Positions 5,096-30,773 of a stretch of DNA of 35,103 nt are shown here, piece by piece. The notes beneath the pieces were generated by a model. It did not search any database and had not been told where the DNA came from. It saw only the letters and a list, made by a program, of their open reading frames with translations. A program made the translations under genes and the position numbers. Source of the DNA: Anaerolineales bacterium (GTDB taxonomy: Bacteria > Chloroflexota > Anaerolineae > Anaerolineales > DRMV01); NCBI GenBank assembly GCA_026985785.1, contig JALSPT010000163.1:1-35103 (forward strand), given 5' to 3'. How positions within the stretch are numbered: the first letter of the stretch is position 1; each line of letters starts with the position of its first letter.

Positions 5096-5118
5096 AGTTG
5101 CGAGGGGCGAGTGGCGAA

Positions 5119-5123
<5 letters not shown>
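5096..5123. repeat. second copy of the heptamer repeat (3-4 units)
   Basis: gagttgc gaggggc gagtggc gaattag. These units fill essentially the whole 26-nt menB-menE spacer (5093-5118). Confidence 0.7.
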
Positions 5124-5985
<862 letters not shown>

Positions 5986-6009
5986 GGGTTTTCCTCCGGT
6001 TGAGGGCGT

Positions 6010-11721: not shown

Positions 11722-12564
11722 TCACTCGGTCAAAATATGGATGCCCAGCGTTTTTGGGCCCAAGAGAACGGCGCTGACGGTGTTGATTTCGCTGACGTGA
11801 ACGGGGACGGCTATTTTGTCGGTCAGACGGGTGTGTAGATTGTAGGCGGCGCGGTGGAAATGGGTGGTGTGGTGGGTGATGCCGATGCGTTGGAGATTGG
11901 TGAATTCCAAAGTGAATTCTTCCATGATGTCCAGCACGTGGCGGGAGGAGCGGGCTTTTTGAAGAGGGACCAGACGACCGGTTTCCAGAACGAAGAAGGG
12001 GTACATTTCCAGCATTTCGCCGATGATGGCCTGCGCGGGTTCCAGGAAGCCACTGTGGTGAAGGTAGGTGAGGGAGCGGAGGCAGAAGGCGGCGTACAGG
12101 CGTTGTACCATCCCGCGGATGTGGCTGAGGATGGTGAAGATGTCGGCGTCTTGGGCAGCCAGGGCAGCGGCTTCCTGAACGAGCCACCCCAAACCGAGGT
12201 CCAACGTGTGGGTGTCGACGAGATAGACGGGACGATGCTTGCTGAGGGTGTTGACGGCTTCGGCGGCGCGTTGGAAGAGGTCGGTGAGGCTGCTGCCCAT
12301 TGGAAGGAAGAGCAGGCTATCGTACTTGTTCAACAAGGCTTTGATCTGACGGGCGATTTCGGTGGGGGAGGGGAGTTGCAGGCGAGGGGGGGGCTGATGG
12401 AGAAGGCTGGGAGGTAGGGCGGCGGTCAGACGGGCGCTGGGGGGAAGGTAGTGCTGCCCCTCCCACAGGATGGGAAGGGGCAGAATGTGTACCCGTTCGC
12501 TACCGGTAAAACGGGGCGTGAGGAAGTGCGCCGATGCGTCGGTGATGATGCCCACGCCGCGCAT
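11722..12564 (-). CDS. DegV family fatty-acid-binding protein (FakB-like)
   Basis: I trimmed the start to the ATG at 12564, 4 nt after the upstream stop. The N-terminus is GIITDASAHF. It is directly downstream of the DAK2/FakA gene, the conserved pairing. Confidence 0.7.
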   Translation of the reverse strand: MRGVGIITDASAHFLTPRFTGSERVHILPLPILWEGQHYLPPSARLTAALPPSLLHQPPPRLQLPSPTEIARQIKALLNKYDSLLFLPMGSSLTDLFQRAAEAVNTLSKHRPVYLVDTHTLDLGLGWLVQEAAALAAQDADIFTILSHIRGMVQRLYAAFCLRSLTYLHHSGFLEPAQAIIGEMLEMYPFFVLETGRLVPLQKARSSRHVLDIMEEFTLEFTNLQRIGITHHTTHFHRAAYNLHTRLTDKIAVPVHVSEINTVSAVLLGPKTLGIHILTE

Positions 12565-12568
12565 GGGT

Positions 12569-14251
12569 TTACTCCAGCGAGAGGATGAGGGGGTAGTGGG
12601 GCTGGCCACCAAACCACACCTCGATTTCCAGGTCGGGGTAGGTTTCGCGGATGACGTCGGCCAGGCGATGGGCTTCGCTCTTGGAGAGGCCGTCGCCGTA
12701 GAACATGGTGAGCAGTTCGCGGTTTTCGGCCTCGGCTTGCTTGAGTAGGCTGAGCACGGCTTCGTCGAGGCTGCTGGCGGCCAGCACCAGTTTGCCGTCC
12801 AGCAGGGCGATGTATTCCCCCTCGTTGACGGCCACGCCGTCGAGTTCTACCGTGCGGGTGGCGATGGTGATCTCGCCGCTGAGGACGTCTCGCATACTTT
12901 CTTGCATGGCCTCGGCCACGGCTTCCAGTTCGCCGTCTGGGTCGAAAGCCAACATGGCGCCCAAGCCTTGGGGCACGGTGCGGCTGGGGATGACCGCCAC
13001 TTGCTTGACCGTGACCTCTTTGGCCTGTTGAGCCGCCAGGATGACGTTCTTGTTGTTGGGCAAAATCACGATTTTGTCGGTCGGTAGGTTTTCGAAGGCG
13101 CGCAGGATATCCTGGGTGCTGGGGTTCATCGTCTGTCCGCCTTCGACGATGGCCGCCGCCCCCAGGCTGGCAAACACGCGGGCAATGCCCGGCCCCGGCG
13201 CTACCACCACCGCGGCGATCTGCCCCGGTTCGACATTGGCCAGTTCGTAGCGGGTGCCTTCTGGCCCTTCTTCCTGCGCTTCCATCTGGGCAATCAGGTT
13301 TTCGATTTGCACTCGTGTCACCGTGCCCAGGGACATTGCGTAGTCGATCGGCTTGTAGCGGTTTTCGGTGGGAACGTGAATGTGCAGGCGGTACATGCCG
13401 TCGCCTTCACCTACCTGGATGGAGGTGCCCATCGCTTCCAGCGTGTTGTAAAACTTGGGCAGGTCGAGGGGTTGGTGGGGGCGAAAATCCAATACGACTT
13501 CGTAGTCTTGCCCTGGCTCGACGGCTTCGTGGGCGTGTTCCAGATCCAAAGCGGCCAGCGGTTTGACGGTGGTGAGTGCCTGGTCCAGCGGCAGACCGTC
13601 GACGTGGCGCAACATGCCTTCCAGGATGAAGAAGAGCCCCTTGCCTCCCGAATCGACCACGCCGGCCTCTTTGAGCACGGGCAGCAGGTCGGGCGTGCGC
13701 TCCACCGAGGCGTCGGCGGCCAATACCACGGCCTCGAGCAAGGCGATCGGGTCGTCGCTTGTTTTCAGGGCTTCTTCGGCTGCGGCGGCGATGTCTTTGG
13801 CCACGGTGAGGATGGTGCCTTCTACCGGACGTACCACCCCTTTGTAGGCCGTGTCGCGCGCTGCTCGAAGCCCGGCAACCAGCACGTCCGCGGTCAGGAC
13901 GGCGTGGGGTTTCACCGCTTTGGCAAAGCCGCGCCAGAGTTGGGAGAGGATCACGCCGGAGTTGCCCCGCGCCCCCATCAGCGCACCGTGCGCCACGGCC
14001 TGGCTCATTTGGCCGAAGTGCTCTTCTGGGGAATGGGCAATCTCCTCCCAGGCGGCCTGCATGGTGAGGGTCATGTTGGTGCCGGTATCGCCATCGGGCA
14101 CGGGGAAGACGTTGAGGGCGTTGACGACCTCCTGGTTGGTGCGCAGCCAGGTTAGCGCGGCTTCGACCAGGCGTTTGAGCGCTTGGCCGTCGATGGGTTT
14201 GCGGCGGATGGCGCGGCGTCGGGTTTCGTTGGGGGTGATGGTCACGGCCAT
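12569..14251 (-). CDS. fakA: DAK2-domain protein (YloV/FakA, fatty acid kinase ATP-binding subunit)
   Basis: 560 aa with LNVFPVPDGDTGTNM and GARGNSGVILSQ (the DhaL/Dak2 motifs). It sits between asp23 and degV. Confidence 0.85.
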   Translation of the reverse strand: MAVTITPNETRRRAIRRKPIDGQALKRLVEAALTWLRTNQEVVNALNVFPVPDGDTGTNMTLTMQAAWEEIAHSPEEHFGQMSQAVAHGALMGARGNSGVILSQLWRGFAKAVKPHAVLTADVLVAGLRAARDTAYKGVVRPVEGTILTVAKDIAAAAEEALKTSDDPIALLEAVVLAADASVERTPDLLPVLKEAGVVDSGGKGLFFILEGMLRHVDGLPLDQALTTVKPLAALDLEHAHEAVEPGQDYEVVLDFRPHQPLDLPKFYNTLEAMGTSIQVGEGDGMYRLHIHVPTENRYKPIDYAMSLGTVTRVQIENLIAQMEAQEEGPEGTRYELANVEPGQIAAVVVAPGPGIARVFASLGAAAIVEGGQTMNPSTQDILRAFENLPTDKIVILPNNKNVILAAQQAKEVTVKQVAVIPSRTVPQGLGAMLAFDPDGELEAVAEAMQESMRDVLSGEITIATRTVELDGVAVNEGEYIALLDGKLVLAASSLDEAVLSLLKQAEAENRELLTMFYGDGLSKSEAHRLADVIRETYPDLEIEVWFGGQPHYPLILSLE

Positions 14252-14783: not shown

Positions 14784-14983
14784 GGGTGCACTCAAATGTT
14801 GTAGATAAGGCTATCGTATGGCTAGATCTCTCCCCACCCCCTGGCGGAGGCTGTCCTTCGTGAGGACAGCCTCCGCCTTCCCCCTCCCCTCCCTTCAGTA
14901 AGGGAGGGGAGGGGGAGGCCGCCGTAGGCGGCGGGGGAGGGGTGAGATCCTGAAAAGTGCTTCTACGACATTTGCTTGCACCC
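14784..14983. mobile_element. MITE-like element, copy A (200 bp)
   Basis: Imperfect terminal inverted repeats: GGGTGCACTCAAATGTTGTAGA at the left end, and the reverse complement of GGGTGCAAGCAAATGTCGTAGA at the right end. 9-bp direct repeats AGTTTAACC flank it at 14775-14783 and 14984-14992. It has a GATC-bounded palindromic core at 14825-14949. It is nearly identical to the reverse complement of 17196-17396. Confidence 0.85.
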
Positions 14984-17195: not shown

Positions 17196-17396
17196 GGGTG
17201 CAAGCAAATGTCGTAGAAGCACTTTTCAGGATCTCACTCCTCCCCCGCCGCCTACGGCGGCCTCCCCCTCCCCTCCCTTCAGCAAGGGAGGGGAGGGGGG
17301 AAGGCGGAGGCTGTCCTCACGAAGGACAGCCTCCGCCAGGGGGTGGGGAGAGATCTGGCCATACGATAGCCTTATCTACAACATTTGAGTGCACCC
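17196..17396. mobile_element. MITE-like element, copy B (201 bp), inverted relative to copy A
   Basis: The terminal inverted repeats match copy A. 9-bp direct repeats CAGTTTGCC flank it at 17187-17195 and 17397-17405. The core holds three hairpins (CCGCCGCC-TAC-GGCGGCC-like, CCCCTCCCCTCCCTT..AAGGGAGGGGAGGGG, and GGAGGCTGTCCT..AGGACAGCCTCC). Confidence 0.85.
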
Positions 17397-17412: not shown

Positions 17413-17441
17413 TTGACGCTATAGGTGAGTACAAGTATAAT
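17413..17441 (+). promoter_or_regulatory. sigma70-type promoter, TTGACG-17 nt-TATAAT
   Basis: TTGACG at 17413-17418, a 17-nt spacer, and TATAAT at 17436-17441. It lies 60 nt upstream of the DUF4388 gene ATG. GGGAG is the RBS. Confidence 0.55.
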
Positions 17442-17501: not shown

Positions 17502-18326
17502 ATGGCGCTCAAAGGGAATTTGCGTGATTTCTCGATCACGCAGTTGCTTAACCTCATCAACTTGGCCCGAAAGACGGGGGTGTTGCATATTCGGGGACCC
17601 GAATCGGAGGCCAATATCTACTTCAGAGAGGGCAAACTGGCGTATGCTGGCTTGAGCCACCAGCCCAATGATTTGGCCTCGGTGTTGTATCGGGAAAAGA
17701 AACTAACGGCAGGGCAATACAAGGCGATTAAGGCAAAAAGCGGCCATATTTCTGACAAAGCGTTGGGGCTATTGTTGGTCAATGCGGGATATCTCTCGCA
17801 AGAGGATATTTTGCGTAGTTTGCAAGCGGCATACGTTGAGGTGGTGCGCCGTTTGTTCGCGTGGGCGGAGGGCCTTTTTCGTTTTGATGCGCAAGCACCC
17901 CCGCCGGCGGATCGCATCCTCGTACGTGTGAATTTGGAGAACCTCATTATTGAGGGTGCGCGCCAGCTGCGAGAGTGGGAACAACTCCAAAAGGAGATTC
18001 CCAATCTGGATATGGCGCTGAAATTCACTGACCGCCCCGGAGCAAACCTGCGTAGCCTCAATTTGAGCGTGGAAGAATGGCGGGTGGTGTCTTACATCCA
18101 TCCTAAGAATACGATCCGGCAGATTGCCCGGGCGACCAAGATGAATGACTTGGAGATCCGGCGGATTGTGTACGGGTTGCTTCAGGCTGGCCTGGTGGAA
18201 CTGGTGAGGCCGGCGCAAAAAGAGATGGCACCACCCAAGCCCATCCGTACTGCACTGGAAGGCAAGTCTAAAGACGAGCAACGCTCGCTGGTCAATCGTT
18301 TGATTTCCCGCATTCGGGGTCTCTAA
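17502..18326 (+). CDS. DUF4388 (PATAN-like) domain protein with a C-terminal winged-helix-like segment
   Basis: The N-terminus GNLRDFSITQLLNLINLARKTGVLHIRG...IYFREGKLAYA is the DUF4388 signature. The middle has LGLLLVNAGYLSQEDIL. The C-terminus has EEWRVVSYIHPKNTIRQIARATKMNDLEIRRIVYGLLQAGLVELV, which looks like an HTH. Confidence 0.8.
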   Translation: MALKGNLRDFSITQLLNLINLARKTGVLHIRGPESEANIYFREGKLAYAGLSHQPNDLASVLYREKKLTAGQYKAIKAKSGHISDKALGLLLVNAGYLSQEDILRSLQAAYVEVVRRLFAWAEGLFRFDAQAPPPADRILVRVNLENLIIEGARQLREWEQLQKEIPNLDMALKFTDRPGANLRSLNLSVEEWRVVSYIHPKNTIRQIARATKMNDLEIRRIVYGLLQAGLVELVRPAQKEMAPPKPIRTALEGKSKDEQRSLVNRLISRIRGL

Positions 18327-18361: not shown

Positions 18362-18901
18362 ATGCAGACAGTAAAAATTGTGGTCACGGGCCCCTTTAGC
18401 GCTGGCAAAACGGCTTTTATCCAGACTGTCAGCGAGATCGACGTCGTCTCCACGGAGCGCAAGATCAGTAGTGAGGCGGAAAAGATCAAAGACACCACGA
18501 CTGTAGCGATGGACTTTGGCCGCATCACGGTAGATGATGATCTTGTGCTTTACCTCTTCGGCACGCCGGGGCAGAGGCGCTTTGATTTTATGTGGGAAAT
18601 TCTTTCAGAGGGTATGCTGGGCTTTATCGTGTTGGTAGATAGCACGCGCCCCGAAACCTTCCGTGAAGCACGCAGTATTTTGGAAACCTTCCGCGCTTAT
18701 GCCCCAACGCCCTACGTTGTGGCTGCTAACAAGCAAGATCTGGAAGATGCCTGGGAGTTGGAAGACATGCGGATTGCTTTGCGGCTCGATCCGCAAGTAA
18801 AACTGGTGCCGTGCGTGGCAACGGACAAAGAGTCGGTGAAGAAGGTTTTGTTGGAGTTGTTGTTGAGTATTATGGAAGAGATCGAAGGTGGCGCTTCGTA
18901 A
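18362..18901 (+). CDS. small Ras-like GTPase of the MglA/CvnD (ATP/GTP-binding protein) type
   Basis: P-loop GPFSAGKT, G3 LFGTPGQ and G4 NKQD. It is 179 aa. Confidence 0.85.
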   Translation: MQTVKIVVTGPFSAGKTAFIQTVSEIDVVSTERKISSEAEKIKDTTTVAMDFGRITVDDDLVLYLFGTPGQRRFDFMWEILSEGMLGFIVLVDSTRPETFREARSILETFRAYAPTPYVVAANKQDLEDAWELEDMRIALRLDPQVKLVPCVATDKESVKKVLLELLLSIMEEIEGGAS

Positions 18902-18955
18902 CGTTGACAAACGCAAGCACGCCTTCATAAGGAACCAGATACGTGGGGCAAGAGG

Positions 18956-18985
18956 GGGCGAGGTGGAAAAGCCTCGCCCTGTTTT
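18956..18985 (+). terminator. rho-independent terminator after the GTPase gene
   Basis: GGGCGAGG-tggaaaag-CCTCGCCC followed by TGTTTT. Confidence 0.6.
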
Positions 18986-19074
18986 CATCGGCTGGCAGGC
19001 GGTGCTCCCGAGGGTTGACCTGCGGGTGGGGGCGCTGGCCGAGAGGAAGATTGTGAAAACTGTGTGAGGCGTTT

Positions 19075-19902
19075 GTGTCATCAATTACTACGGATCAAGG
19101 CGTTGTTCATTACGAAGTGTTTGGCCGCGGCCAACCGGTGATTTTGCTGCACGGTTGGTTGGGCTCGTGGGGGGTGTGGCAGGAGACGATGGCCTACCTG
19201 GGGCAATATTATCGCGCCTATGCCCTGGATTTTTGGGGGTTTGGAGAGTCGGGTAAGAAGCGCGAGTCCTACGATGTTGCCGATTTTGTCAGCCTGGTTG
19301 ACCAGTTCATGGAACAATTGGGTATTGCTCAAGCGCCTTTGGTCGGCCATAGTATGGGCGGAACGGTGGCGTTGAGCGTGGCCATTCAATATCCCCATCG
19401 GGTGACCCGTGTCACGGTGATTGGGTCGCCAATTGACGGCAATTCCCTGGCTTTGGCACTCAAGTTGGCCGGTTATCGCCCGATTGCTTTCCTGGTGTAC
19501 CGTTTCATGCCTTTGCTTCAACTGGGTATTCGGTTGAGCTCACCGTTTGTGACCAAGGACCCCCGCTGGCCGGAAATGATGGATCGCGACCTTTCTCAGA
19601 CCACGCTGGAATCCTTCCTTCATAGCATTGCCTCTTTGCGCCGCACGAATTTACGCCCCTCTTTGCGCCAAATCCGCCAGCCCGTCCTCGGAATGTATGG
19701 CGATAAAGACGTGATCGTTAGCCCACGCCAGTGGATACCGCTTAAGCAGGGCGTGCCCCATGCTCAGATCGTGCGCTTTCGTGAGGCTGGGCATTTTATC
19801 ATGCTCGATCAGCCTCAGGCCTTTATGCATACCCTGCACGCTTTCCTGGATGGCCGTCCTGTAGTGAAAGATCACGGTGCTGAGGGCACAAGGCGAGTAT
19901 AA
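19075..19902 (+). CDS. alpha/beta hydrolase (intact Ser-Asp-His triad)
   Basis: GTG start with GAGG 5 nt upstream. It has HGWLGSWGVW, the nucleophile elbow GHSMGG, GDKD and GHF. Confidence 0.85.
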   Translation: MSSITTDQGVVHYEVFGRGQPVILLHGWLGSWGVWQETMAYLGQYYRAYALDFWGFGESGKKRESYDVADFVSLVDQFMEQLGIAQAPLVGHSMGGTVALSVAIQYPHRVTRVTVIGSPIDGNSLALALKLAGYRPIAFLVYRFMPLLQLGIRLSSPFVTKDPRWPEMMDRDLSQTTLESFLHSIASLRRTNLRPSLRQIRQPVLGMYGDKDVIVSPRQWIPLKQGVPHAQIVRFREAGHFIMLDQPQAFMHTLHAFLDGRPVVKDHGAEGTRRV

Positions 19903-20438
19903 TGGCGGTGGCGCCCAAGATGGTAGGCACAGAGGCCGTGCAAACAGCCTGGCAGGCCGCAATAGAGGAGATTCTGGGGCCGGAGCAAGACGTTTTGGGT
20001 GAGCGTTTGCCTTCCTGGCAAGGGGCTGTCGCGGCGCTGTGCGGTTACTATGGCGAGCGTGCGGGAAAAGGGCTAAGCGTGCGGATAGGGCGTGCTTTTG
20101 CGCGGCGCCTGGTTCCCCTGTTCGCGGAACAGGCGGGCTTTCAAAGCGCGGCATTCCGTTTTTTGCCCTGGCCGCGGAAGGTGGTGCGCGGCCTGGAACG
20201 GTTGGGAGCGTTCGCCCGCCAGTGGTTTGTTGTACCCGTTACGGTGGATGTGCAGGAAACAGAAATCGTGTGGCGTTTCGCCGCATGCCCCTTTGGGGCG
20301 ACGTGGGCGGGCAGTTGCGCGCTTTGGCAGGGTTTCTTGCAGGAAATACTCTACTGGCTTAGCGGCGGTCGTTGGTTTGCCGTGCACCTGGATGGTAAGA
20401 AGCCTCTTTTACGGGTGCCCCGGCGTCCGTTGCATTGA
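19902..20438 (+). CDS. hypothetical protein, possibly with a V4R-like small-molecule-binding domain
   Basis: 178 aa. Its ATG overlaps the upstream TAA (TAATG), and the next gene starts directly after its stop. The C-terminal FAACPFGATWAGSCALWQGFLQEILYWLSGG resembles the Cys-containing V4R pattern, but this is a weak call. Confidence 0.5.
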   Translation: MAVAPKMVGTEAVQTAWQAAIEEILGPEQDVLGERLPSWQGAVAALCGYYGERAGKGLSVRIGRAFARRLVPLFAEQAGFQSAAFRFLPWPRKVVRGLERLGAFARQWFVVPVTVDVQETEIVWRFAACPFGATWAGSCALWQGFLQEILYWLSGGRWFAVHLDGKKPLLRVPRRPLH

Positions 20439-21731
20439 GTGCTCGCGATGCTTAAAATCATTCTCCACGACGACCGGCATATTGCCCCCTTCAACGAGCC
20501 TGCGCGTGACTTGCGGATCCAGAACAAGCCGCTCTGGCTGGCGCAGCGTGACGTGCTGACGCCGTACGTCGACCGGGAAATCGAAATCCGCGCTGGTCAG
20601 CAACTGCCACCTATTCGGGAAGAGGTCATTGCTTATCGGGACAACCTCTTCTTCGACGAATTCTATTTGCGCGCTTTTCTGGAGGAAGCCCGCCGCCGCA
20701 ATAAACCGGTGCGCGCGGCTTTTTCTGCCAACGACCCGGCCTTTCGGGAGCACGCTCTCCCGCTTTCCATCTCCTATACGCCGCAGGGCGATATTTACCT
20801 TGCCGACCTCTGGTATTACCCCCACGGCACGGTGACGGATGAGGAGCCGGAACCTCTGGTGATCGATTTGCTGGCGCGTGAGATTGGCTACTATCACGTG
20901 CCCACTTATATGGCCACCGAACAGGGCGATCTGGTCTTTCAGGTGCCTTTGCGGGCCTTGATTGCCATCGATAGTTGGGTACACATTTTCATCGCCGATG
21001 TGGTGTTTGGCGTGTTTGCCCGCGGGGCGCGCTTCGAAGAGCGCCTCAACCGCGACCCCCTTTTCAAACTCAAAATCCTGGCCACGGCCATGTACGAAGG
21101 CAAACAGGTGCTTTCTTCTTCCCCGCTGGTGCAAGTAGGGCGCAATGTGGTGATCGACCCCACGGCGGTCATTCACGGCCCGACCATCATCGGCGACAAC
21201 GTCACCATCGGCGCCGGGGCGGTGATCGACAATTGCGTCATTGGTGATAACGTGAATGTCTCTCAAGGCTGCCAGTTGCTGCTTTCGGTGGTGGGGGATG
21301 GCGCTTTCTTGCCTTTCCGGGCGGCGCTCTTTATGACCACTTTCATGGACAACAGCATGGTAGCCCAAAACGCTTGCTTGCAGATGTGTGTGGTGGGGCG
21401 CAATACGTTCATTGGCGCGGGCACCACGTTTACCGATTTCAACTTGATTTCGGCGCCTATCAAAGCGCGCGATGGGCATGGCGTGTTGCGGGATTCCAAT
21501 CGCCCGGTGCTGGGCGGCTGTGTGGGGCACAATTGCCGTTTAGGCTCTGGATTGGTGATCTATCCTGCCCGGATGATTGAGTCCGACGTGGTTTTGGCGG
21601 CAACGCCGGAGCGCCGTGTGATTATGAAAGACGTCTCGTACGAAGAAAGCGACCACCACCATCTGCGAGGAGGCCATCGTCACCCGCGCCTCTATCCCCG
21701 CCCGGGTGAAACATCCTCTCAAAGTTGGTAG
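20439..21731 (+). CDS. left-handed beta-helix (hexapeptide repeat) protein, GlmU-like putative nucleotidyl/acyl transferase
   Basis: Hexapeptide run VVIDPTAVIHGPTIIGDNVTIGAGAVIDNCVIGDNVNVSQG. The N-terminal KIILHDDRHIAPFNEPARDLRI resembles the alternative GlmU-like family. The start is either GTG at 20439 or ATG at 20448. Confidence 0.7.
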   Translation: MLAMLKIILHDDRHIAPFNEPARDLRIQNKPLWLAQRDVLTPYVDREIEIRAGQQLPPIREEVIAYRDNLFFDEFYLRAFLEEARRRNKPVRAAFSANDPAFREHALPLSISYTPQGDIYLADLWYYPHGTVTDEEPEPLVIDLLAREIGYYHVPTYMATEQGDLVFQVPLRALIAIDSWVHIFIADVVFGVFARGARFEERLNRDPLFKLKILATAMYEGKQVLSSSPLVQVGRNVVIDPTAVIHGPTIIGDNVTIGAGAVIDNCVIGDNVNVSQGCQLLLSVVGDGAFLPFRAALFMTTFMDNSMVAQNACLQMCVVGRNTFIGAGTTFTDFNLISAPIKARDGHGVLRDSNRPVLGGCVGHNCRLGSGLVIYPARMIESDVVLAATPERRVIMKDVSYEESDHHHLRGGHRHPRLYPRPGETSSQSW

Positions 21732-22836
21732 TGCCGTGGATACTTTCGCTTTCATCATTCACCCCATCGACCCCAAGCGAGACGTGAGCCGCAAGTTCCC
21801 TCTTTTGGGGCGCATTTTGACCGAGCGGCAGATTGACTTCTTTTCCACCTTTTTCCCTCCCGTGTATATCTCGGAGATTACCGGCATCACTTCGGAGGCC
21901 ACGGGCAAAGAGATCAAGGGATGGTTCGTTGCCTGCCCTTACACGCCCCGCCGGATGTTGGAACTGCCCGAAAGGGTGGTGTATCGCAAGATCATCCAGA
22001 CCGGTCGGCTGGCCGAGCGGCTGGGCGCTAAAATTTTAGGATTGGGCGCGTTTACTTCGGTAATTGGTGATGGCGGCCTGACCATCGCTCGGGCGTTGGA
22101 TGTGCCGGTCACCACGGGCGACGCTTACACCGTTGCCATCGCAGTGGAAGCCGTTTGGGAGGCCGCTCGCCTGATGGAGATCGACCCGTCCAATGCCGTG
22201 GCTGCCGTGGTTGGGGCCACAGGTGCGATCGGGCGAGTGGCTGCAACGCTCCTTGCACGGCGCGCAGGTGAGGTATACTTAATTGGGCGCCGCAGCGAGG
22301 CGCTGGAGGCCGTGCGGGAGCGTATTGCTGCCGACGGTGGACGGGCTGACCTTAAAATCAGTACCGAGATGAGTGACCTACGCAAGGCACAGTTGATCTT
22401 GACGGTAACCAGCGCGCTGGATGCCGTCGTAGAGCCTGAGCATCTCCAGCCCGGTAGTGTGGTCTGTGATGTGGCTCGCCCGCGAGATGTGTCGGCGCAG
22501 GTGGCAGCGGCGCGGCAGGACGTGCTCGTCATCGATGGCGGTATGGTGCAGGTGCCGGGGCCGGTGAATTTCCATTTCGACTTTGGTTTCCCTCCAGGAA
22601 AGGCCTATGCCTGCATGGCCGAAACGATGGCGCTGGCTTTGGAGGGACGCTTTGAAGATTACACGGTTGGCAAAGAAATTTCCCTCGCGCGGGTAGAGGA
22701 GATCGCCCGCATTGCCGGTAAGCATGGCTTTCGCTTGAGTGGTTTCCGCTCGTTTGAAAAAGCGGTAACCCCCGAACACATTGCTCGTGTACGTGCCCTG
22801 GCCAGGAAGCGGCGGGCGCAGCGGGCAGGGAGGTAG
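21706..22836 (+). CDS. acyl-ACP reductase (Aar)-like NAD(P)-dependent oxidoreductase
   Basis: Colinear with cyanobacterial Aar as I recall it: FAFIIHPID, LGLGAFTSVIGDGG, TTGDAYT, VVGATGAIG, and the catalytic-Cys context YACMAETM (Cys codon at 22612-22614). An alternative GTG start lies at 21736. Confidence 0.75.
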   Translation: MKHPLKVGSAVDTFAFIIHPIDPKRDVSRKFPLLGRILTERQIDFFSTFFPPVYISEITGITSEATGKEIKGWFVACPYTPRRMLELPERVVYRKIIQTGRLAERLGAKILGLGAFTSVIGDGGLTIARALDVPVTTGDAYTVAIAVEAVWEAARLMEIDPSNAVAAVVGATGAIGRVAATLLARRAGEVYLIGRRSEALEAVRERIAADGGRADLKISTEMSDLRKAQLILTVTSALDAVVEPEHLQPGSVVCDVARPRDVSAQVAAARQDVLVIDGGMVQVPGPVNFHFDFGFPPGKAYACMAETMALALEGRFEDYTVGKEISLARVEEIARIAGKHGFRLSGFRSFEKAVTPEHIARVRALARKRRAQRAGR

Positions 22837-22839: not shown

Positions 22840-23733
22840 ATGGGCAAGGCTCGCATCTTGGTCGTGGAAGACGATCTGGACATCGCCAATATGTTACAGA
22901 TCTATTTTTCCAGTCAGGGGTACGATGTGGAAATTGCCCCTCGCGGTTACGACGCGTTGGAAAAAACCCGTCACAGTATGCCCCACCTCATTGTGCTGGA
23001 CATCATGCTCCCTGACATCGATGGGTATGAAGTCTGCCGCCGTTTGCGCACCAGCACCCGCACCAGCCACATCCCTGTGATCTTCCTGACGCAGAAAGAC
23101 GAGCGCAGTGACCGCCTGCAGGGGTTGGAATTAGGCGCGGATGATTACATCACCAAGCCGTTCGATATCGAAGAATTGCGGTTGCGGGTGCAAAATGCCA
23201 TTCGGCGGGCGGAGCGTGAGAGCCTGACCGACCCCCGCTCCGGCCTGCCGGCGGGGCGGCTGATCGAGGAGCAACTGCGGCGCATCATACGCACCGACGG
23301 CTGGGCGTTGATGGATATTCGCATCAACCATTACGATGCCTTTCGGGAAGTGTATGGCTTTGTGGCCGCCAACGATGTATTGCGTTTTACCGCCATGTTG
23401 CTCAATGAAGTGGTGGACGAATTGGGCGGGGCCGAGGATTTCATCGGCCATCCGGGAGACGAGAACTTTGTCGTCATTACCACCGAGGAGGCTGCAGCGC
23501 CTATTCGCGCCCGCCTCAAAGAGCGGTTTGCCGAAGAGGTCAAGAGCCACTACAACTTCATCGACCGCGAGCAAGGTTACATTACAGTAGAGGAACAAGG
23601 CAAACAACGGCGGGTGCCTTTGATGACGCTTTCCATCGGCATTGTATCGCCTTCGCAATATCAGTTCGCGGATATTCGCGAGATCACCGAACTGGCAGCG
23701 GAAGCGCGGCGTAAAGATCTGCCGGCTGCTTGA
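22840..23733 (+). CDS. response regulator, REC plus a degenerate GGDEF domain
   Basis: REC motifs VVEDD, VLDIMLPDIDG and ITKPF. The output domain has the GGDEF layout (TDPRSGLPAGR...DIRINHYDAFREVYGF...), but GDENF replaces GGDEF and there is no RxxD I-site. Confidence 0.85.
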   Translation: MGKARILVVEDDLDIANMLQIYFSSQGYDVEIAPRGYDALEKTRHSMPHLIVLDIMLPDIDGYEVCRRLRTSTRTSHIPVIFLTQKDERSDRLQGLELGADDYITKPFDIEELRLRVQNAIRRAERESLTDPRSGLPAGRLIEEQLRRIIRTDGWALMDIRINHYDAFREVYGFVAANDVLRFTAMLLNEVVDELGGAEDFIGHPGDENFVVITTEEAAAPIRARLKERFAEEVKSHYNFIDREQGYITVEEQGKQRRVPLMTLSIGIVSPSQYQFADIREITELAAEARRKDLPAA

Positions 23734-26700
23734 GCACCCTCGCGAGGTCACGAGAGCCCATGCTGGGAACCGAAGTCGTTGCAGTAGGGATTGTGTTGGC
23801 GGTCGTTGGGGCCGGTTTTCTGTTGATGGCCCGAACGCTGGCCGCGCTTGCCAGCATGGGAGGTGGAAAAGAAGCCGCCCTTGCCTTGCCAGCCCAGCCG
23901 CTGCAGGCGCCGGAAGAGGAAAGCGCGGGGGTCATCGTTGTGGCTTCGGGCGGCAGGGTAGTGTACCTCAACCGTGTGGTACGGGAGTGGCTCGATTTGC
24001 TCCCGGAGGATCGGCCTTCTTTGGAGTTCCTGCTACACCGTGTACGCCCCGACGACGAGTTCATGCGATTGTGCAGCCAGCCGGGGGAAGCGCGTCTCAA
24101 TTTGGCCGCCCGGGCGCTGGAAGCCCTCTCGTATGCTGTGCCTTACAAGGGGGAATTGGCAATGGCGATTGTATTGCGCCCGTTGTCTGTGAGCGCCACA
24201 GGGGAGGAAGGGGGGGGCAATTCCCCCGTCGCCGAGATGGTGCGCCGTTTCGTGGTGTTGGGGCAGAAAATTGCCACCCATTTGGATTTCGAAGAAGCCC
24301 TGTTGGCCGTGGCAGAGATGCTGGCGGAGATTTTGCCTTTTGATGTCATGGAAATCACCCTCTGGGACAAGCGCCACGAGCGTCTGGTGCCGTATCGCTA
24401 CGCGATAGAAGAGGGAAAAGTGCTGCGTCATCCGGCGACAGAACGCTATGCTCCCGAAGAGAGTCTGAGTGGTTATGTATTGCGGCAACGGCAACCAGTT
24501 TTGGTTGCGGATTTGGATCATGAAGCGCCGGTGACCGCTGCTATCAATCGCCGCCGCTACCCCATTCGCGCTTACCTGGGCGTCCCGTTGGTGGTAAACG
24601 AAAAGCCCATTGGCACATTGGAAATCGCTTCTTTTACCCCGGGGGCTTATACCGTTGCGGACCAGAACTTCTTTGCTTTGGCGGCAGTCGATATCGCCGT
24701 GGCGGTATATAACGCTCGCCGTTTCAGCGAGACCTCTCGGCAATTGCAGGAACTGCGCAACCTGGCAGAGATGGCGCGGGCAGTGGGAGGCGTCAAAGAG
24801 GCGCGTCAACTTGTGGCGCATATTATGCGCAATATCAGCGCTTTGCTCTCGGCCCAGGTTATGGGATTTCTTTTCTACGACGAAGTACACCATGTGTTGC
24901 AGGCGCAGTGGCCTTTCAAGGGGCTGCCTGAGGGCTTTGTAGAGGCTTATCGAACCCGCATACCGTCGGGAGGGCGCGCGGAGGCTTTGTTGTTGCAGGG
25001 TGAGCCGTTGGTAACGGATGATGCGGTCACCGATGAGCGGTGGCAGGTTTTGGGGCTGGCCGAACTGAGCAAAGTAGCGGGTATTCACCACAGTGTGTTG
25101 TACCCTCTCAACACGGGTCAGCGTTCGTTGGGTTTTCTGCAGGTCGCCAACAAACCGGAAGATGCACCTTTCGATACGGATGACCTGGAAGTGTTGCGTT
25201 TGATTGTGGGGCAGGTGGTGCCCTTGTTGGAAAACGCGGTTTTGTTCGAAGAGGCCCGGCAGCGCGCCCAGCGCGCTGAGGCGCTGCGGCGCATTGCCAG
25301 CCTGGCGGCCTCTGAGGCTACCTTGGAGGAACTGTTCAAGTTCTCGCTGGTGGAGATGGCGCGTTTGGTGGGCGCCCGCTATGGGGCGGTACTGCTGTGG
25401 GAAGAAGAAGGTCTTGTGCCTCATGAGACTTCGGTGTATGGTCTTTCACCGGAGCAGGCGCGCGCCGTTGGTGTCATCCGTGCCGACGCTCCCGATTTCC
25501 TCCTTACCGTCAGCCGCACAGGGCGGCCTTTCTTAAGCCGAGATGTGCAGAATGACCGCCGTGTGGCACGAGCCTACCGTCCGATTTTGAAGACTTTACC
25601 TGATGTGCGGGCGGCGCTGGTTGTGCCCATGCAGGCGCATGGTGAAAAGGTGGGGGAAATTTTGTTGGGGAGCGACCGCCCGGGACAGTTTGACCGGAGC
25701 GACTTGCAATTGATAGCGGCAGCCGCGGCGCAGCTGGCAGTAGGGGTCGAGCGGCAGCGGTTGTTGGCGCAGAGCGACGAAACGTTGCGCTCGCAAGTGC
25801 GGGAGTTGAGCACCCTGACCCGCCTCAGTCGCGAACTGGCCGCTGTGTCTTCCCTTGAAGAACTGCTGCGCTACGCTCATCGCCAGGTTGTCGAGCTCAC
25901 CGCTGCTGACTGTGGGCATACGCTGGTGCTGGAGGCAAGCGAGGAGGGAAAATGGCACGTGTTGCACCAGGCGGGTGGCCCCTGCAGAGCACGCTTGCAT
26001 CCGTTGGATGAGCACGCCCTTGCGCAGGGTGTGCCTGTGGACGTGAGCGATTACCGTACCTCTTCGTACACGGCGCCCCACGAAGGTGTGCGTTCGTCAT
26101 TGGTGTTGCCCTTGTTGTACCAAAACGAAATAGTGGGCGTGTTGCACTTGCATGCCCACCAGCCCAATCATTTCGATTACACCCGCCGCCGCTTTGCGCA
26201 CATGTTGGCGCAACACATCGCGGTAGCCATTGGCCACGCCCGCGAAATGCGACGCCTTTTTGACCACAATAGGGCGTTGCAGCACAAAGCGCGAGGCCTG
26301 CAGCGCTTACAGGATTTTTTGCAAACCCTACACCCCCTGGCCGAAGAAGATGAGATTTTTGAACGCTTTGTGGCCCTGATAAGCGATACGGCGGGTTTTG
26401 ATGCGGTGCTTTTGGCGCGCTACGATGTGGCCAGCGGCAGGTTGAACCCTGTCGCTGTGAGGGGGTTCACCGAAGTCGCTCCGCTGCCATGGGATGCATT
26501 GAACCTTTTGCTGGAAGACCGCTTTGGGCAGGGAGAGGTGTATTTCATCCCGGCAGAAGAACGGCCACCGCTACCGGCGAACTTGCATTTACCTGCGGCG
26601 AACACCAGTTTGCCTGCGGATGTTGACGAAACGACCTGGCGCCCCGAAGACCTTTTGCTGGTGGCATTGCGCATGCCTGAGGGGGAGTTGCTGGGTGTAG

Positions 26701-29700
26701 TGTATCTGGATGCGCCGCGGGAGGGACGCCGCCCCGACGAGGCGACGTTGGAGGTGTTGCGTTTGCTGGGCGCAGAAGGCGCCTGGCTGTTGGAAGTGCG
26801 CCATTTGTTGGAAGGATGGGGGGCAGAACGGCGCTACTTGGAAGATCGTGTCCGCGAGGCTGAAGAGGTCACCCGTCAGGTTCAGCGTGACTTGCCGCGC
26901 TGGCTGCGCAAGGACCTGCAACAGGCCATTGACCGCTACACGTTGGCGCAGCGGGCGGAGCGTTTGCGGGTGAGCCTGGAGGTGACCACGGTGCTCAATC
27001 GCCAGCCCAGCCGTAGCGGAGTGCTCAATGCGTTGGGTAGGCAACTTGTAGAGCGGTTGGGCTTCAATTACGTGCTCATCGCTGAACCAACGCCTTTCCG
27101 GGGCGATGGTGAAGAGGGTGGTGTGCGGCTGTTTCGTGTGTTTGGGGAATTGCCACCCGGTTCCCGCTTGGATATGTTGCTGGGGCAACGTAATCCTTTG
27201 ACCGAGGTGTTGCGAGAGGGGAAAGTGCTCATTGTGCCTGATATCGGTCGCGACCGCTCATGGGAACGCTCTCCCCTCCTCCAACGGCTGCAAGCCCAAA
27301 GTTTTGTGGCGTTCCCCATCGTCGTTGAGCAACAGGGTGAAGGGGGGCGCCCGCGAGGCGCGGTGCACCATCTGGTGTTGGCCACTTCCAGCGCCCCAAT
27401 GGCTTCCTCCTCCCATGCAGATGCCCTGGTCTTCGAACTGCTTGGGCGGCAGGTGGGCATTGTTTTGCAAAACCTGGAATTGCTGGCGAATACCTCTCGC
27501 CGCCTACGGGTAGCCGATTTATTGCTTTCGTTCAGCAGCCAGTTGGGCGTGTTGGATCCCGGAAGAATTCTCAATACTCTGCTGGAGAGCGCCTTGGGCG
27601 TGCTGCAGCAACACGCCCATGCCGGCTTTGTGGCTTTGTGGGACCCTGAGCAGGAGATGCTCCGTTTGCAGGCCGCGGGGGGCTATGCTGCGCCGGATGA
27701 AATGTTGAAAGTGGCGCTCTCTGCCGATAGTTTGCCCGCCCGGGTGATGTTCGAAGGGCAACCGCGCCGCATTGGCGAACTGGACTTTGCCGCGGCTTAT
27801 CCCCTGGATGCCGAAGGTCTGCTTGCTTATCAGAAGGCTACGGCAGAGCGCATTCCTGTTTCCACCATGATCGTGCCCTTGGGCAGTGGCAAACAAGCGT
27901 TGGGAGTGGTGGTGTTGGACAATTTCAACACCACGGCTGCTTTTACGCGCGAAGACCAGGATTTGATCGTTTCGCTGGCTCGACAAACAGCCCTGAGCCT
28001 GGAAAACGCCCGCCTTTTGCAGACGGCTGAGCGCCGAGCCGCGCAACTCCATGCCCTGGCGGCTGCATCGGCGGATATCGTTGCGCGTAGCCTTTCCCTG
28101 GAAGAAATCGAGTCGTCTCTGCTGGAGCAACTGGCGCAGGTGTTGCCTTACGATGGGGGCACGTTGTGGCTGCGCGAAGGTAAAAACTTGCGAGTGCGCG
28201 ACGCTCGCGGATTTCCCAATGCCGATGAACTGGTAGGCATTACCATCGCGATCGAGGATAGCCGTTTGTTCCAGGATATGTTGGCTGCCCGCCGGGCTTT
28301 GGTCGTTCACGATACCCATGCCGATAACCGGTTCCCTTCGCCGGAGGTGGTGCCCAATCGCTCCTGGCTTGGGGTACCGCTGCGTTTCAAGGACGAAGTG
28401 TTGGGCGTGATTGCGCTGGAAAAGAAAGAGCCGCACTTCTTCACGCGCGATTGGGTGGAAACGGCAGAAACGTTTGCCAGCCAGGCAGCGGCGGCCTTGG
28501 CCAATGCCCGTCTGTACGAAGAAAGCCTGCATCGTTCGGAAGAACTCGACCGGCGCAGTCGGCGGTTGGCTTTGGTTTACGAGGTGACAGCCGAACTTTC
28601 GTCCTCGCTTGACCCTCACTACATCGCTACTTATACTGCCCGGCGGCTGCACGAGGCGTTGGGAGCCGTGCCGGTCTCGCTGGTTTTGTGGCAAGAAGAG
28701 CAGCCCATCCTGGTGGCAGAAGCGCCGTCTGTATCGGAGACGGGGGGACTGCCGCGTGTTCTGCCTGCAGCGCCCTTGTTTGCCCATTTGAAGGAAACGC
28801 TGGGCATCTTTCGCACGGAGGACTATGCCGAAGAGCCGTTGATGGCGCCTTTGCTCGATTTCCTGGCCGCGCGGGAGGGGCATGAGGTGGTGGCCGTGCC
28901 CTTGACGGCGGGCGAAACTTTCTTTGGCGTGGTGTTTCTCCATGTGCCTGCAGGGCGCGATGTGGGTAGTGAGGAGATCGACCTGGCTCAAACGGTAGCA
29001 AAGCAGGCGGCGGTAGCGTTACAAAATGCCCATTTGTATGAAACCACGCGCCGTTTCAGCGAAGAACTGGAAGCGCGGGTCAATGCTCGAACCCGGGAAT
29101 TGCAGCGGGAGCATCATCGTGCTCAAACGCTGTTGCGCATTATGGGCGAACTTTCTGCCAGCCTGGATCTCGACCAGGTGCTCAACCGCACGCTTGACCT
29201 GCTCAACGAGGCTCTCAGCGCCGAGCAGAGCAGTATCTTGCTGGCGCGCTCCGGTGAAAGCACGCTGTTTTTCCGGGCAGGCCGGGGCTATACCGAGCAG
29301 CCGCCGGTGGGAGGACGCCCCACCGATATTTCGGCCAAAGATTCGCTGGCAGGCTGGGTCATCCAGAACAATCAGCCGGTTTTGATCGCCGATCTGAGGC
29401 AGGATCCCCGCTGGAGCGAAAAGCCGCACGGTTTACCCACGGCGCACCGTAGCGTGCTCGGCGTGCCGTTGGTGGTGGCGCAGGAAACGTTAGGCGCTTT
29501 GTTGCTCTTTCACCCGGAGCCTCATCATTTTACGGACTATCACCTTGACCTCGCCGAGGCGACGGCCAAGCAGGTGGCGGTCGCCATCAACAACGCCGAA
29601 CTCTTCCGCCTGATTCGGGAGCAGGCGGAGCGGTTGGGTAAATTGCTCCGCCAGCAGGAAGTCGAGGCCAGCCGGGCACGAGCGATCCTCGATGCTATTG

Positions 29701-30773
29701 CCGACGGCGTGTTGGTGACCGACGCCAAGGGCAAGATCACGCTGTTCAACCCTTCGGCAGAGCGTTTGCTGGGCTTGTCTGCCGATCAGGTGGTCGGCCA
29801 GCCTTTGGAGCACTTTGTGGGCTTTTTCGGCTCGGCGGGTCGGCAATGGATGGAAACCATCCACACCTGGTCGGAGGAGGTGGAGGCCGAAGGGAACGAG
29901 CCGACGACGTATGCCGAACAACTGGAATTGGATGATGGGCGGGTCGTGTCGGTACACCTGGCGCCGGTGTTCTTCCGCCGCGAGTTTCTGGGGACGGTTT
30001 CAGTTTTTCGGGATATTACGCACCAGATTGAGGTTGACCGGTTGAAATCCGAATTCGTGGCCACCGTATCCCATGAGTTGCGGACGCCGATGACGGCCAT
30101 CAAAGGCTATGTGGATATCCTCTTGATGGGCGCGGCTGGGCCTCTCACCGACCAACAGCGCCGGTTTTTGAAGACCGTGCAGAGCAACACCGAGCGCCTC
30201 AATTTGCTGGTGGGTGACTTGTTGGATATCTCCCGCATCGAGGCCGGGCGTATCGCGCTTGTGATGGAGGCGCTGAACCTGAAAGAATTGCTCGAGGACG
30301 TGGTGAACGAGCAACGCCGTTTGGCCGAGGAAGCCGGGCGGGAGATCGTGGTGGAGGTGGCCGTGCCTGAGGATCTGCCGTTGGTGCGCGGCGACCATGA
30401 GCGGGTACGCCAAATTGTGGAGAATCTGATCGAGAACGCCTATCGTTACACGCCCGACGGGGGGCGGGTGCGTGTGACAGCGATGACAAAGGATGGTGAA
30501 GTGCAGGTTGATGTGTCCGATACCGGGATCGGCATTTCCCCCGAGGAGCAGCAACGGGTGTTCGAGCGGTTTTATCGGGGTGAAAATCCCCTCGTGATGG
30601 CTTCGGCAGGCACCGGTTTGGGGTTGGCGATTGTCAAAACGCTGGTCGAGATGCACGGTGGGCGCATCTGGGTCGAAAGCAGCGGCGTGCCGGGCGAAGG
30701 GAGCACGTTCTCCTTCACGCTGCCGGTCTATACCGAGGAAGACGAGCAACATTCAGCAGCAGGAGAGGCTTGA
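23730..30773 (+). CDS. giant sensor histidine kinase: TM, PAS-like, about ten GAF modules, PAS, HisKA, HATPase_c
   Basis: 2347 aa. The GAF C-terminal helix motif recurs ten times (for example AVALQNAHLYET, AAALANARLYEE, ALSLENARLLQT). The H-box is SHELRTPMTAIKGY (His codon at 30072-30074). The N and G boxes are ENLIENAYRYTP, DTGIGI and GTGLGLAIV. The start is TTG at 23730 or ATG at 23760. Confidence 0.9.
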   Translation: MSTLARSREPMLGTEVVAVGIVLAVVGAGFLLMARTLAALASMGGGKEAALALPAQPLQAPEEESAGVIVVASGGRVVYLNRVVREWLDLLPEDRPSLEFLLHRVRPDDEFMRLCSQPGEARLNLAARALEALSYAVPYKGELAMAIVLRPLSVSATGEEGGGNSPVAEMVRRFVVLGQKIATHLDFEEALLAVAEMLAEILPFDVMEITLWDKRHERLVPYRYAIEEGKVLRHPATERYAPEESLSGYVLRQRQPVLVADLDHEAPVTAAINRRRYPIRAYLGVPLVVNEKPIGTLEIASFTPGAYTVADQNFFALAAVDIAVAVYNARRFSETSRQLQELRNLAEMARAVGGVKEARQLVAHIMRNISALLSAQVMGFLFYDEVHHVLQAQWPFKGLPEGFVEAYRTRIPSGGRAEALLLQGEPLVTDDAVTDERWQVLGLAELSKVAGIHHSVLYPLNTGQRSLGFLQVANKPEDAPFDTDDLEVLRLIVGQVVPLLENAVLFEEARQRAQRAEALRRIASLAASEATLEELFKFSLVEMARLVGARYGAVLLWEEEGLVPHETSVYGLSPEQARAVGVIRADAPDFLLTVSRTGRPFLSRDVQNDRRVARAYRPILKTLPDVRAALVVPMQAHGEKVGEILLGSDRPGQFDRSDLQLIAAAAAQLAVGVERQRLLAQSDETLRSQVRELSTLTRLSRELAAVSSLEELLRYAHRQVVELTAADCGHTLVLEASEEGKWHVLHQAGGPCRARLHPLDEHALAQGVPVDVSDYRTSSYTAPHEGVRSSLVLPLLYQNEIVGVLHLHAHQPNHFDYTRRRFAHMLAQHIAVAIGHAREMRRLFDHNRALQHKARGLQRLQDFLQTLHPLAEEDEIFERFVALISDTAGFDAVLLARYDVASGRLNPVAVRGFTEVAPLPWDALNLLLEDRFGQGEVYFIPAEERPPLPANLHLPAANTSLPADVDETTWRPEDLLLVALRMPEGELLGVVYLDAPREGRRPDEATLEVLRLLGAEGAWLLEVRHLLEGWGAERRYLEDRVREAEEVTRQVQRDLPRWLRKDLQQAIDRYTLAQRAERLRVSLEVTTVLNRQPSRSGVLNALGRQLVERLGFNYVLIAEPTPFRGDGEEGGVRLFRVFGELPPGSRLDMLLGQRNPLTEVLREGKVLIVPDIGRDRSWERSPLLQRLQAQSFVAFPIVVEQQGEGGRPRGAVHHLVLATSSAPMASSSHADALVFELLGRQVGIVLQNLELLANTSRRLRVADLLLSFSSQLGVLDPGRILNTLLESALGVLQQHAHAGFVALWDPEQEMLRLQAAGGYAAPDEMLKVALSADSLPARVMFEGQPRRIGELDFAAAYPLDAEGLLAYQKATAERIPVSTMIVPLGSGKQALGVVVLDNFNTTAAFTREDQDLIVSLARQTALSLENARLLQTAERRAAQLHALAAASADIVARSLSLEEIESSLLEQLAQVLPYDGGTLWLREGKNLRVRDARGFPNADELVGITIAIEDSRLFQDMLAARRALVVHDTHADNRFPSPEVVPNRSWLGVPLRFKDEVLGVIALEKKEPHFFTRDWVETAETFASQAAAALANARLYEESLHRSEELDRRSRRLALVYEVTAELSSSLDPHYIATYTARRLHEALGAVPVSLVLWQEEQPILVAEAPSVSETGGLPRVLPAAPLFAHLKETLGIFRTEDYAEEPLMAPLLDFLAAREGHEVVAVPLTAGETFFGVVFLHVPAGRDVGSEEIDLAQTVAKQAAVALQNAHLYETTRRFSEELEARVNARTRELQREHHRAQTLLRIMGELSASLDLDQVLNRTLDLLNEALSAEQSSILLARSGESTLFFRAGRGYTEQPPVGGRPTDISAKDSLAGWVIQNNQPVLIADLRQDPRWSEKPHGLPTAHRSVLGVPLVVAQETLGALLLFHPEPHHFTDYHLDLAEATAKQVAVAINNAELFRLIREQAERLGKLLRQQEVEASRARAILDAIADGVLVTDAKGKITLFNPSAERLLGLSADQVVGQPLEHFVGFFGSAGRQWMETIHTWSEEVEAEGNEPTTYAEQLELDDGRVVSVHLAPVFFRREFLGTVSVFRDITHQIEVDRLKSEFVATVSHELRTPMTAIKGYVDILLMGAAGPLTDQQRRFLKTVQSNTERLNLLVGDLLDISRIEAGRIALVMEALNLKELLEDVVNEQRRLAEEAGREIVVEVAVPEDLPLVRGDHERVRQIVENLIENAYRYTPDGGRVRVTAMTKDGEVQVDVSDTGIGISPEEQQRVFERFYRGENPLVMASAGTGLGLAIVKTLVEMHGGRIWVESSGVPGEGSTFSFTLPVYTEEDEQHSAAGEA

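Follow-up and report, generated by a model that had tools for sequence, protein, structure and literature searches.

What does an enzyme that resembles Aar, the cyanobacterial reductase that acts on acyl-acyl carrier protein (ACP), do in a locus without the aldehyde-deformylating oxygenase (ADO) that turns its product into an alkane? The question is raised by positions 19075-22836 of a stretch of 35,103 nucleotides (nt) from an Anaerolineales bacterium (contig JALSPT010000163.1), which is referred to as the window. The original prediction for this region was an Aar-like enzyme without its partner, coupled to a left-handed beta-helix (LbH) protein, an intact alpha/beta hydrolase and a small protein with a V4R-like Cys motif, and forming a fatty aldehyde, a fatty alcohol or an acylated product. 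According to sequence comparisons, the reductase is a member of the Aar/PigE-N superfamily and not an Aar orthologue, and its gene lies in the middle of a signaling operon that is conserved across the class Anaerolineae. The explanation that we favor, with modest confidence, is that it is a stand-alone acyl-thioester reductase which acts as a dispensable accessory of this operon and would modulate it via an acyl-derived small molecule. The reductase is a new clade of a known enzyme type, and the interesting part of the locus is the uncharacterized operon that surrounds it.

Positions 19075-22836 contain four closely packed open reading frames (ORFs), all on the plus strand and with the coordinates originally given for them:

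19075-19902, plus strand: alpha/beta hydrolase 1 (Abhydrolase_1, E = 1.2e-33)
19902-20438, plus strand: putative V4R/H-NOX/Bet3-fold protein of 178 residues, fast-evolving and optional (predicted model, Foldseek)
20439-21731, plus strand: protein of 430 residues with an N-terminal domain of about 225 residues and uncertain fold, followed by an LbH (Hexapep and LbH matches)
21736-22836, plus strand: predicted Aar/PigE-N-like NAD(P)H-dependent acyl-thioester reductase (PigE-N and Aar alignments)

The V4R-like gene overlaps the hydrolase 1 gene by 1 nt, and its end abuts the start of the LbH gene (20438/20439). The Aar-like ORF is open from 21706 (376 residues) and encodes 366 residues from the GTG codon at 21736. 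The true start of the gene is probably this GTG, because the protein has 366 residues in its own database entry, all orthologues have 360-368, and the LbH gene stops at 21731, so that the GTG comes 4 nt later. The nucleophilic Cys, C303 in the 376-residue ORF, is C293 when numbered from the GTG.

The colinearity with Aar that had been described for this ORF was confirmed by an end-to-end alignment with the Synechococcus elongatus enzyme (PDB: 6jzq, residues 11-335, E = 4e-26), in which the active-site context YACMAETM lies over FACFAEAM of Aar. The best match, however, is not Aar but the N-terminal reductase domain of PigE (PDB: 4ppm, E = 4e-36), with sequence identities of 33% to PigE-N and 30% to Aar. 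Residues 14-371 of the ORF align with positions 2-362 of the NCBIfam model of PigE (NF053554) with 215 bits, which does not reach the whole-protein cut-off of the PigE type (850 bits), and the score of 108.5 bits (E = 4.1e-31) with the Aar model TIGR04058 is far below the equivalog cut-off of 449.7 bits. PigE/TamH-type enzymes are therefore the best-scoring characterized relatives and have the same CMAET motif; unlike them, the reductase of the window is a stand-alone protein. No class-III aminotransferase domain (Aminotran_3) was found in the reductase, which ends at 366 residues (376 in the longer ORF), or in its neighbors, and no pigment cluster adjoins it. Other families score much lower. 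TIGR01035 (hemA) gives 31.3 bits over residues 139-269 against a cut-off of 209.55; HemA, with GSAM, is a distant mechanistic relative which also uses a Cys-acyl intermediate, an NADPH hydride and aldehyde hand-off (PMC8341465), but nothing in the locus points to a tRNA substrate or to a heme context. TIGR00507 (aroE) gives 21 bits against a cut-off of 200, in the Rossmann region only, compared with the 108.5 bits of the Aar model, and the reductase is not a genuine shikimate dehydrogenase.

Active-site residues were analyzed in an alignment of the reductase with 119 orthologues, Aar and PigE, with residue roles taken from PMC7089970. Cys293, which corresponds to Cys294 of Aar, and the GATGxIG loop that binds NAD(P)H (GATGAIG in the window, 162-GATGDIG-168 in Aar) are unchanged across the 119 orthologues. 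In Aar, R189, R193 and R314 hold the 2'-phosphate of NADPH (PMC7089970); R185 and K313 of the window protein match R189 and R314, and R193 is replaced by Ala. The cofactor is probably NADPH. Among the ADO-docking residues of Aar, R79 and K80 are retained, whereas R73 is replaced by Pro and R118 by Leu. PigE-N reduces a thioester to an aldehyde, by a Cys mechanism that is common to Aar and glutamyl-tRNA reductase (PMC8341465). At the sequence level, the features needed for a Cys-mediated, NAD(P)H-dependent thioester reduction are present in the predicted enzyme.

The search for ADO was negative. No ADO domain (Ald_deCOase) was found in Pfam scans of all sizeable ORFs of the window, and tblastn over the window and 90 related loci (1.49 Mb) gave a best match of only E = 0.54, with an S. 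elongatus ADO sequence as query, which had been validated on PDB 4quw_A (507 bits, full length). The claim that ado is missing thus holds for the window and for the orthologous clusters. Since the reductase belongs to the Aar/PigE-N superfamily, keeps its Cys and NAD(P)H site and has no adjacent ado, an aldehyde is a likely end product and an alkane is not, as had been predicted.

The absence of ADO is, however, ordinary by itself. A word-index search found 7,402 homologues of the reductase at E <= 1e-10; the top 120 show identities of 73-92% and all belong to Anaerolineae or Chloroflexota metagenome-assembled genomes (MAGs). When the 50%-identity representatives were searched exhaustively, 3,430 clusters matched at E <= 1e-3 and 946 at E <= 1e-30, and each of the best 150 representatives resembles the query more closely than Aar or Serratia PigE does. 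In a crude neighbor-joining tree rooted on Aar, the clade of the window stands apart from PigE and from the long-branched Aar. By homology, the reductase is placed in a very large radiation outside the cyanobacteria, where the partner is never ADO; the ADO-less state is therefore the norm, shared by thousands of homologues. The description of the enzyme as an Aar that lacks its partner was not borne out: its Aar score is below the cut-off, PigE-N is closer, it falls in this radiation, and it has other residues at the docking positions R73 and R118.

Rather than standing alone as a unit, as had been assumed, the four genes form the middle part of a longer operon of GTPase and two-component genes. 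Ten genes are found in the order PATAN protein, MglA-like GTPase, hydrolase 1, V4R-like protein, LbH protein, Aar-like reductase, response regulator with a GGDEF-like domain, multi-GAF kinase, single-domain response regulator and hydrolase 2. The remaining features of the operon are:

17413-17441, plus strand: promoter-like site TTGACG-17-TATAAT (consensus scan, 11/12 matches; pattern match only)
17502-18326, plus strand: PATAN (PatA_N/DUF4388) protein, first gene of the operon (PF14332, E = 2.3e-29)
18362-18901, plus strand: MglA/CvnD-like small Ras-superfamily GTPase (matches to ATP_bind_1, Ras, Arf and TIGR00231)
18955-18980, plus strand: terminator-like hairpin, a 10-bp stem with seven GC pairs followed by a T-run, within the gap between the GTPase and hydrolase 1 genes
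22840-23733, plus strand: response regulator whose GGDEF domain is weak and apparently degenerate (Response_reg, E = 7.9e-30; GGDEF, E = 2.4e-07, 31 bits)
23730-30773, plus strand: sensor histidine kinase of 2347 residues, with at least nine GAF domains, PAS, HisKA and HATPase (Pfam)
30775-31149, plus strand: single-domain response regulator (Response_reg, E = 3e-30), conserved in position
31198-31986, plus strand: alpha/beta hydrolase 2, paralogous to hydrolase 1 but without the nucleophilic Ser (Abhydrolase_1, E = 1.3e-24)

The same gene order was found in two Anaerolineales MAGs (L001 and L002) and in the locus L086, where the reductase is only 46% identical. The LbH alignment was used to scan one genome for each GTDB species, which gave at least 260 relatives, and the best 80 loci, which span Anaerolineales, Thermoflexales, Ardenticatenales, Caldilineales and Aggregatilineales, were analyzed. 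The core of the operon is conserved according to tblastn of each window protein against the best loci: median identities to the window are 82% for the GTPase, the best conserved gene of the operon, 72% for the GGDEF-like response regulator, 68% for the LbH protein, 66% for the reductase, 65% for hydrolase 1, 64% for the single-domain response regulator, 60% for the PATAN protein, 48% for hydrolase 2 and about 27% for the V4R-like protein. Of 82 related loci, 73 have the PATAN gene at this place. Where the reductase is present, its slot between the LbH and response regulator genes is retained over the five orders at 46-90% identity. The operon was not described in the literature searched, PADLOC gave no defense-system assignment, and Rfam showed no RNA family in the window.

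The GTPase shows invariant GxxxxGKT, GTPGQ and NKQD motifs and reaches the threshold of TIGR00231; lipidation of the protein was considered and dropped, since a terminal Cys is absent. The operon resembles actinobacterial conservons (CvnA-D) and MglA/MglB modules in that an MglA-family GTPase is encoded together with a histidine kinase, and PATAN proteins are occasional neighbors of group 1 and group 5 MglA genes (PMC4316618). It differs from these systems in that it has no Roadblock/MglB or DUF742 gene, the slot adjoining the GTPase being held by the PATAN gene, and in that it contains two hydrolases, an LbH protein and the optional V4R-like protein and reductase. The gap between the GTPase and hydrolase 1 genes (18902-19074) is 173 nt long, compared with 19 nt at the same junction in L001, and its hairpin may act as an attenuator, dividing the operon of this organism into two units. 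In the GGDEF-like response regulator, the signature read by eye is PGDEN instead of GGDEF, so an active diguanylate cyclase is improbable. We consider the more useful result of the analysis to be this uncharacterized operon of ten proteins, found class-wide in Anaerolineae and built around an MglA-like GTPase, a PATAN protein and a giant kinase.

Within the operon the reductase is an optional gene. Presence was scored at the operon locus, and the counts merge two scoring passes over the loci. About 45 loci have a full-length reductase gene and 19-22 have none; in the latter, just 34-376 nt separate the LbH and regulator genes. Internally deleted remnants were found in L026 (11511-11950; residues 39-146 and 308-353) and L032 (11282-11671; residues 1-60 and 318-357), and L015 (11278-12364), a long-read MAG, shows an apparent frameshift that may stem from an error in sequencing. 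By Fitch parsimony on a neighbor-joining tree of the LbH protein (75 taxa), the root state is 'present', with at least 14 changes. Furthermore, the identities of reductase and LbH protein to the window covary (r = 0.82), which indicates vertical inheritance, and the median identity of the retained reductases, near that of the LbH protein, shows strong constraint. From parsimony and covariation together, the reductase is therefore ancestral, vertically inherited, constrained where it is kept, and repeatedly lost. Its presence is also independent of the V4R-like gene: 29 loci have both genes, 16 only the reductase, 13 only the V4R-like gene and six neither, and the V4R-like gene is absent in 24 of the 71 loci scored for both genes. 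The coupling of the reductase to its neighbors that had been proposed is loose, as the gene is gone from about one third of otherwise intact operons. What remains is a core of PATAN protein, MglA-like GTPase, active hydrolase, LbH protein, GGDEF-like response regulator, multi-GAF kinase, single-domain response regulator and putative pseudo-hydrolase. This natural presence and absence is a ready-made comparative experiment.

In the reaction suggested by the conserved residues and by analogy with Aar, the acyl group would move from acyl-ACP or acyl-coenzyme A (CoA) to Cys293, a hydride from NADPH would reduce the Cys-bound acyl group, and an aldehyde would leave; the substrate would thus be acyl-ACP or acyl-CoA and the product an aldehyde. 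Most likely, the reductase would modulate the signaling module by producing or removing a small acyl-derived molecule, and a role in bulk lipid or hydrocarbon production is less likely. If enzymes of the operon do produce or process a signal, small-molecule metabolism would be wired in a new way into a bacterial Ras-like GTPase switch. Several points weigh against this explanation. Y247 of Aar, important in substrate binding, is Arg in the window protein, and the residues of the acyl tunnel are unlike those of Aar. An ACP, an aldehyde-consuming enzyme and an obvious aldehyde receptor are all missing from the operon. Membership of the operon alone is no proof of a signaling role and could reflect simple co-regulation, and the trees were made by neighbor-joining and have no support values.

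The neighboring proteins bear on the alternative that the region encodes a pathway of its own. Hydrolase 1 is intact, as predicted: the triad Ser93 (GHSMGG), Asp212 and His240 is invariant in 71 sequences. Its PDB relatives are generic (esterases, epoxide hydrolases, MCP hydrolases and BioH), and PDB searches with both hydrolases gave only such relatives, with no specific family such as a signaling hydrolase. Hydrolase 2 retains Asp194 and His222, and its nucleophile position (GHGLG in the window) is occupied by Gly in 27, Ala in seven and Ser in two of 36 sequences. Since the nucleophile is replaced in most sequences, hydrolase 2 is mostly a predicted pseudo-enzyme, and it is probably a pseudo-enzyme or a receptor-type hydrolase.

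The V4R-like protein gave no match in sequence searches of PDB and no Pfam match, and its orthologues match V4R weakly; only nine sequence homologues were detected. Its predicted model, with a predicted local distance difference test (pLDDT) score of 82.7, matched H-NOX, TRAPPC3/Bet3 and the V4R domain of MopR in Foldseek, with TM 0.5-0.56 and a best E of 8e-4. As in H-NOX/V4R sensors, the small protein is encoded upstream of a kinase and a GGDEF-like regulator. It differs from them in that its only invariant Cys residues are C129 and C139 and the heme-binding Y-x-S-x-R motif was not seen by eye. The V4R/Bet3 fold contains a structural Zn site formed by Cys residues and a cavity that accepts hydrophobic ligands, and the mammalian Bet3 homologue holds palmitate in this cavity (PMC10933270). 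The fold matches agree with the predicted likeness to V4R, but the Cys motif corresponds to a structural site and not to a catalytic one. As a side observation, identity to the L001 orthologue is only about 33% both for the V4R-like protein and for the multi-GAF kinase, compared with 52-82% for the other proteins of the operon; the two may be a co-evolving sensor pair or may be tracking different ligands.

The LbH protein matches the Pfam families Hexapep, LbH_EIF2B (eIF2B-epsilon), GMPPB_C, Hexapep_GlmU and LbH_GLGC, with the sub-family matches below cut-off. All NCBIfam matches are far under their cut-offs, including LpxA (23.4 bits, cut-off 226) and LpxD (35.2 bits, cut-off 207). An hhalign comparison of the full LbH alignment with Escherichia coli GlmU aligned residues 223-276 (model columns 221-274) with GlmU 258-311 only. 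The LbH begins at a position colinear with GlmU, and because the aligned part covers only the first LbH turns, a nucleotidyltransferase N-terminal domain could not be shown by sequence. Foldseek matches to nucleotidyltransferases were weak, and they are only suggestive, since the predicted model is poor (pLDDT 56.6). A nucleotidyltransferase-like motif without the glycine-rich (GxGTR) loop was seen by eye at the N-terminus and serves as a lead, not as a test. A profile of the N-terminal domain was also compared with PDB, and the hits, cyanide dihydratase and transketolase, were at chance level and were rejected. These matches weakly suggest that the protein is nearer to the GlmU/GMPPB/eIF2B type than to LpxA/LpxD. 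Since its matches are of the nucleotidyltransferase-LbH type and LpxA/LpxD are far below threshold, acyl-ACP dependence is not indicated; of the partner originally described, the beta-helix itself stands.

The alternative that positions 19075-22836 form a four-gene cassette, in which the reductase, an LbH acyltransferase, the hydrolase and the V4R-like protein produce a fatty aldehyde, alcohol or acylated product, is consistent with the translational packing (overlaps or gaps of 0-4 nt), the intact triad of hydrolase 1, the affinity of the V4R/Bet3 fold for hydrophobic ligands and the lipid contexts of some reductase relatives. This original idea is nevertheless weakened, to a point where we regard it as unlikely, because two of the four members are lost independently and because of the nature of the LbH protein. 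All four combinations of V4R-like gene and reductase exist, hydrolase and LbH protein remain where the reductase is gone, and the block always sits between the GTPase and the two-component genes.

The contexts of more distant relatives were also examined. An N-terminal extension longer than 100 residues is present in 53 representatives, of which 32 (including P0266, P0273 and P0298) have an N-terminal domain of about 300 residues, the commonest fusion partner, which has no Pfam match. A Rosetta-stone link through this domain, present in relatives of about 700 residues, was rejected, as hhalign against every protein of the operon gave probabilities of 0.5% or less. An SRPBCC lipid-binding domain is found in 11 representatives, one of which also has PilZ. 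Eight form one similarity cluster, and all five of these that were scanned with Pfam have a class-III aminotransferase (Aminotran_3), together with AMP-binding in two and PP-binding in one. The other two share a different N-terminal extension. Separately, one representative has a C-terminal GAF domain, and in L083 an Aar-GAF fusion is found with an ACP and a FabA-like dehydratase upstream. The relative in L088, 45% identical and with the domain of about 300 residues, adjoins genes encoding patatins, SCP2, an iron-containing alcohol dehydrogenase, an epimerase and a DAGAT-like acyltransferase, and that in L090 adjoins an Aminotran_3 aminotransferase and an SRPBCC protein. The contigs around P0250, P0253, P0255 and P0294 were too short for an informative context. 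The fusions to Aminotran_3, AMP-binding and PP-binding domains support a thioester-to-aldehyde chemistry at the level of the family, and the contexts in L083, L088 and L090 fit such a chemistry with hand-off to a partner.

The lipid genes of L088 and the fact that the gene is dispensable in many lineages would agree with a housekeeping lipid enzyme that, for example, provides ether or neutral lipids with fatty aldehyde or alcohol and is merely co-transcribed with signaling genes. However, the position between the LbH and regulator genes has been kept over five orders, no alcohol dehydrogenase, acyltransferase or ether-lipid gene lies alongside, and sister architectures are fused to the signaling domains GAF or PilZ, and we hold this explanation to be rather improbable.

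A more specific form of the signaling explanation, which is speculative and which we rate as doubtful, is a make-and-sense circuit. In this circuit, the reductase, hydrolase 1 and the LbH protein would make a ligand of the fatty-aldehyde type, which the V4R-like protein would carry, or to which the GAF array or the pseudo-hydrolase would bind, and which would set the kinase, the GGDEF-like response regulator and the GTPase. The GTPase would organize polarity or motility in filamentous Anaerolineae, and the lineages without the reductase would detect the same signal from an exogenous source.

The location in a signaling operon, the Aar-GAF fusions and the palmitate in the Bet3 cavity could also be read as a reductase whose substrate is a non-canonical or protein-bound thioester, for instance an acyl-Cys of an operon partner, or that is a non-catalytic NAD(P)H or redox sensor for the kinase. 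We consider this distinctly improbable: the invariant Cys and the three-domain colinearity with catalytic homologues favor ordinary catalysis, the V4R-like partner is often absent, and the GTPase has no terminal Cys.

That the enzyme is a true Aar orthologue and supplies an alkane pathway, with ado elsewhere in the genome, is very improbable: it shares with Aar (PDB: 6JZQ) three domains, the (F/Y)AC(F/M)AE motif, the GATGxIG loop, equivalents of R189 and R314 and, in some JGI records, the name, but it differs in its low identity and sub-cut-off score, the replacement of R73, R118 and Y247, the separate long branch of Aar, the absence of ADO in all loci searched and a signaling rather than an alkane locus. 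Hardly credible is a shikimate/quinate or amino-acid dehydrogenase, as suggested by a Pfam Shikimate_DH match (E = 6e-08) and by database names, since that match is restricted to the Rossmann domain (residues 162-270), the aroE score is far below cut-off and the full-length matches are to PigE-N and Aar. Homologues are named in public records as shikimate dehydrogenase, predicted amino acid dehydrogenase or, in some JGI records, fatty aldehyde-generating acyl-ACP reductase, and correcting the shikimate dehydrogenase labels is worthwhile.

Other features were observed elsewhere in the window. DegV-family and FakA-like proteins, a fatty acid kinase pair, are encoded on the opposite strand at 11722-14251, 5 kb upstream; the pair is lipid-related, but its position beside the operon is not conserved in other loci. 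An element of about 200 nt is present as an inverted pair (14784-14983 and 17196-17396), with 89-95% identity, an internal C-rich/G-rich palindrome in each copy and only these two copies in the window. The copies flank a block of L28, ribulose-phosphate epimerase and Ser-Thr kinase genes, and end just upstream of the promoter-like site of the operon. Finally, the block 1145-9702 has a GC content of about 70%, compared with 56-61% for the operon, and contains genes for a glycogen synthase, an unassigned ORF, menaquinone-type genes (an AMP-binding ligase, an enoyl-CoA hydratase/naphthoate-synthase-like protein, a thiamine pyrophosphate enzyme and an isochorismate synthase) and then a TetR regulator.

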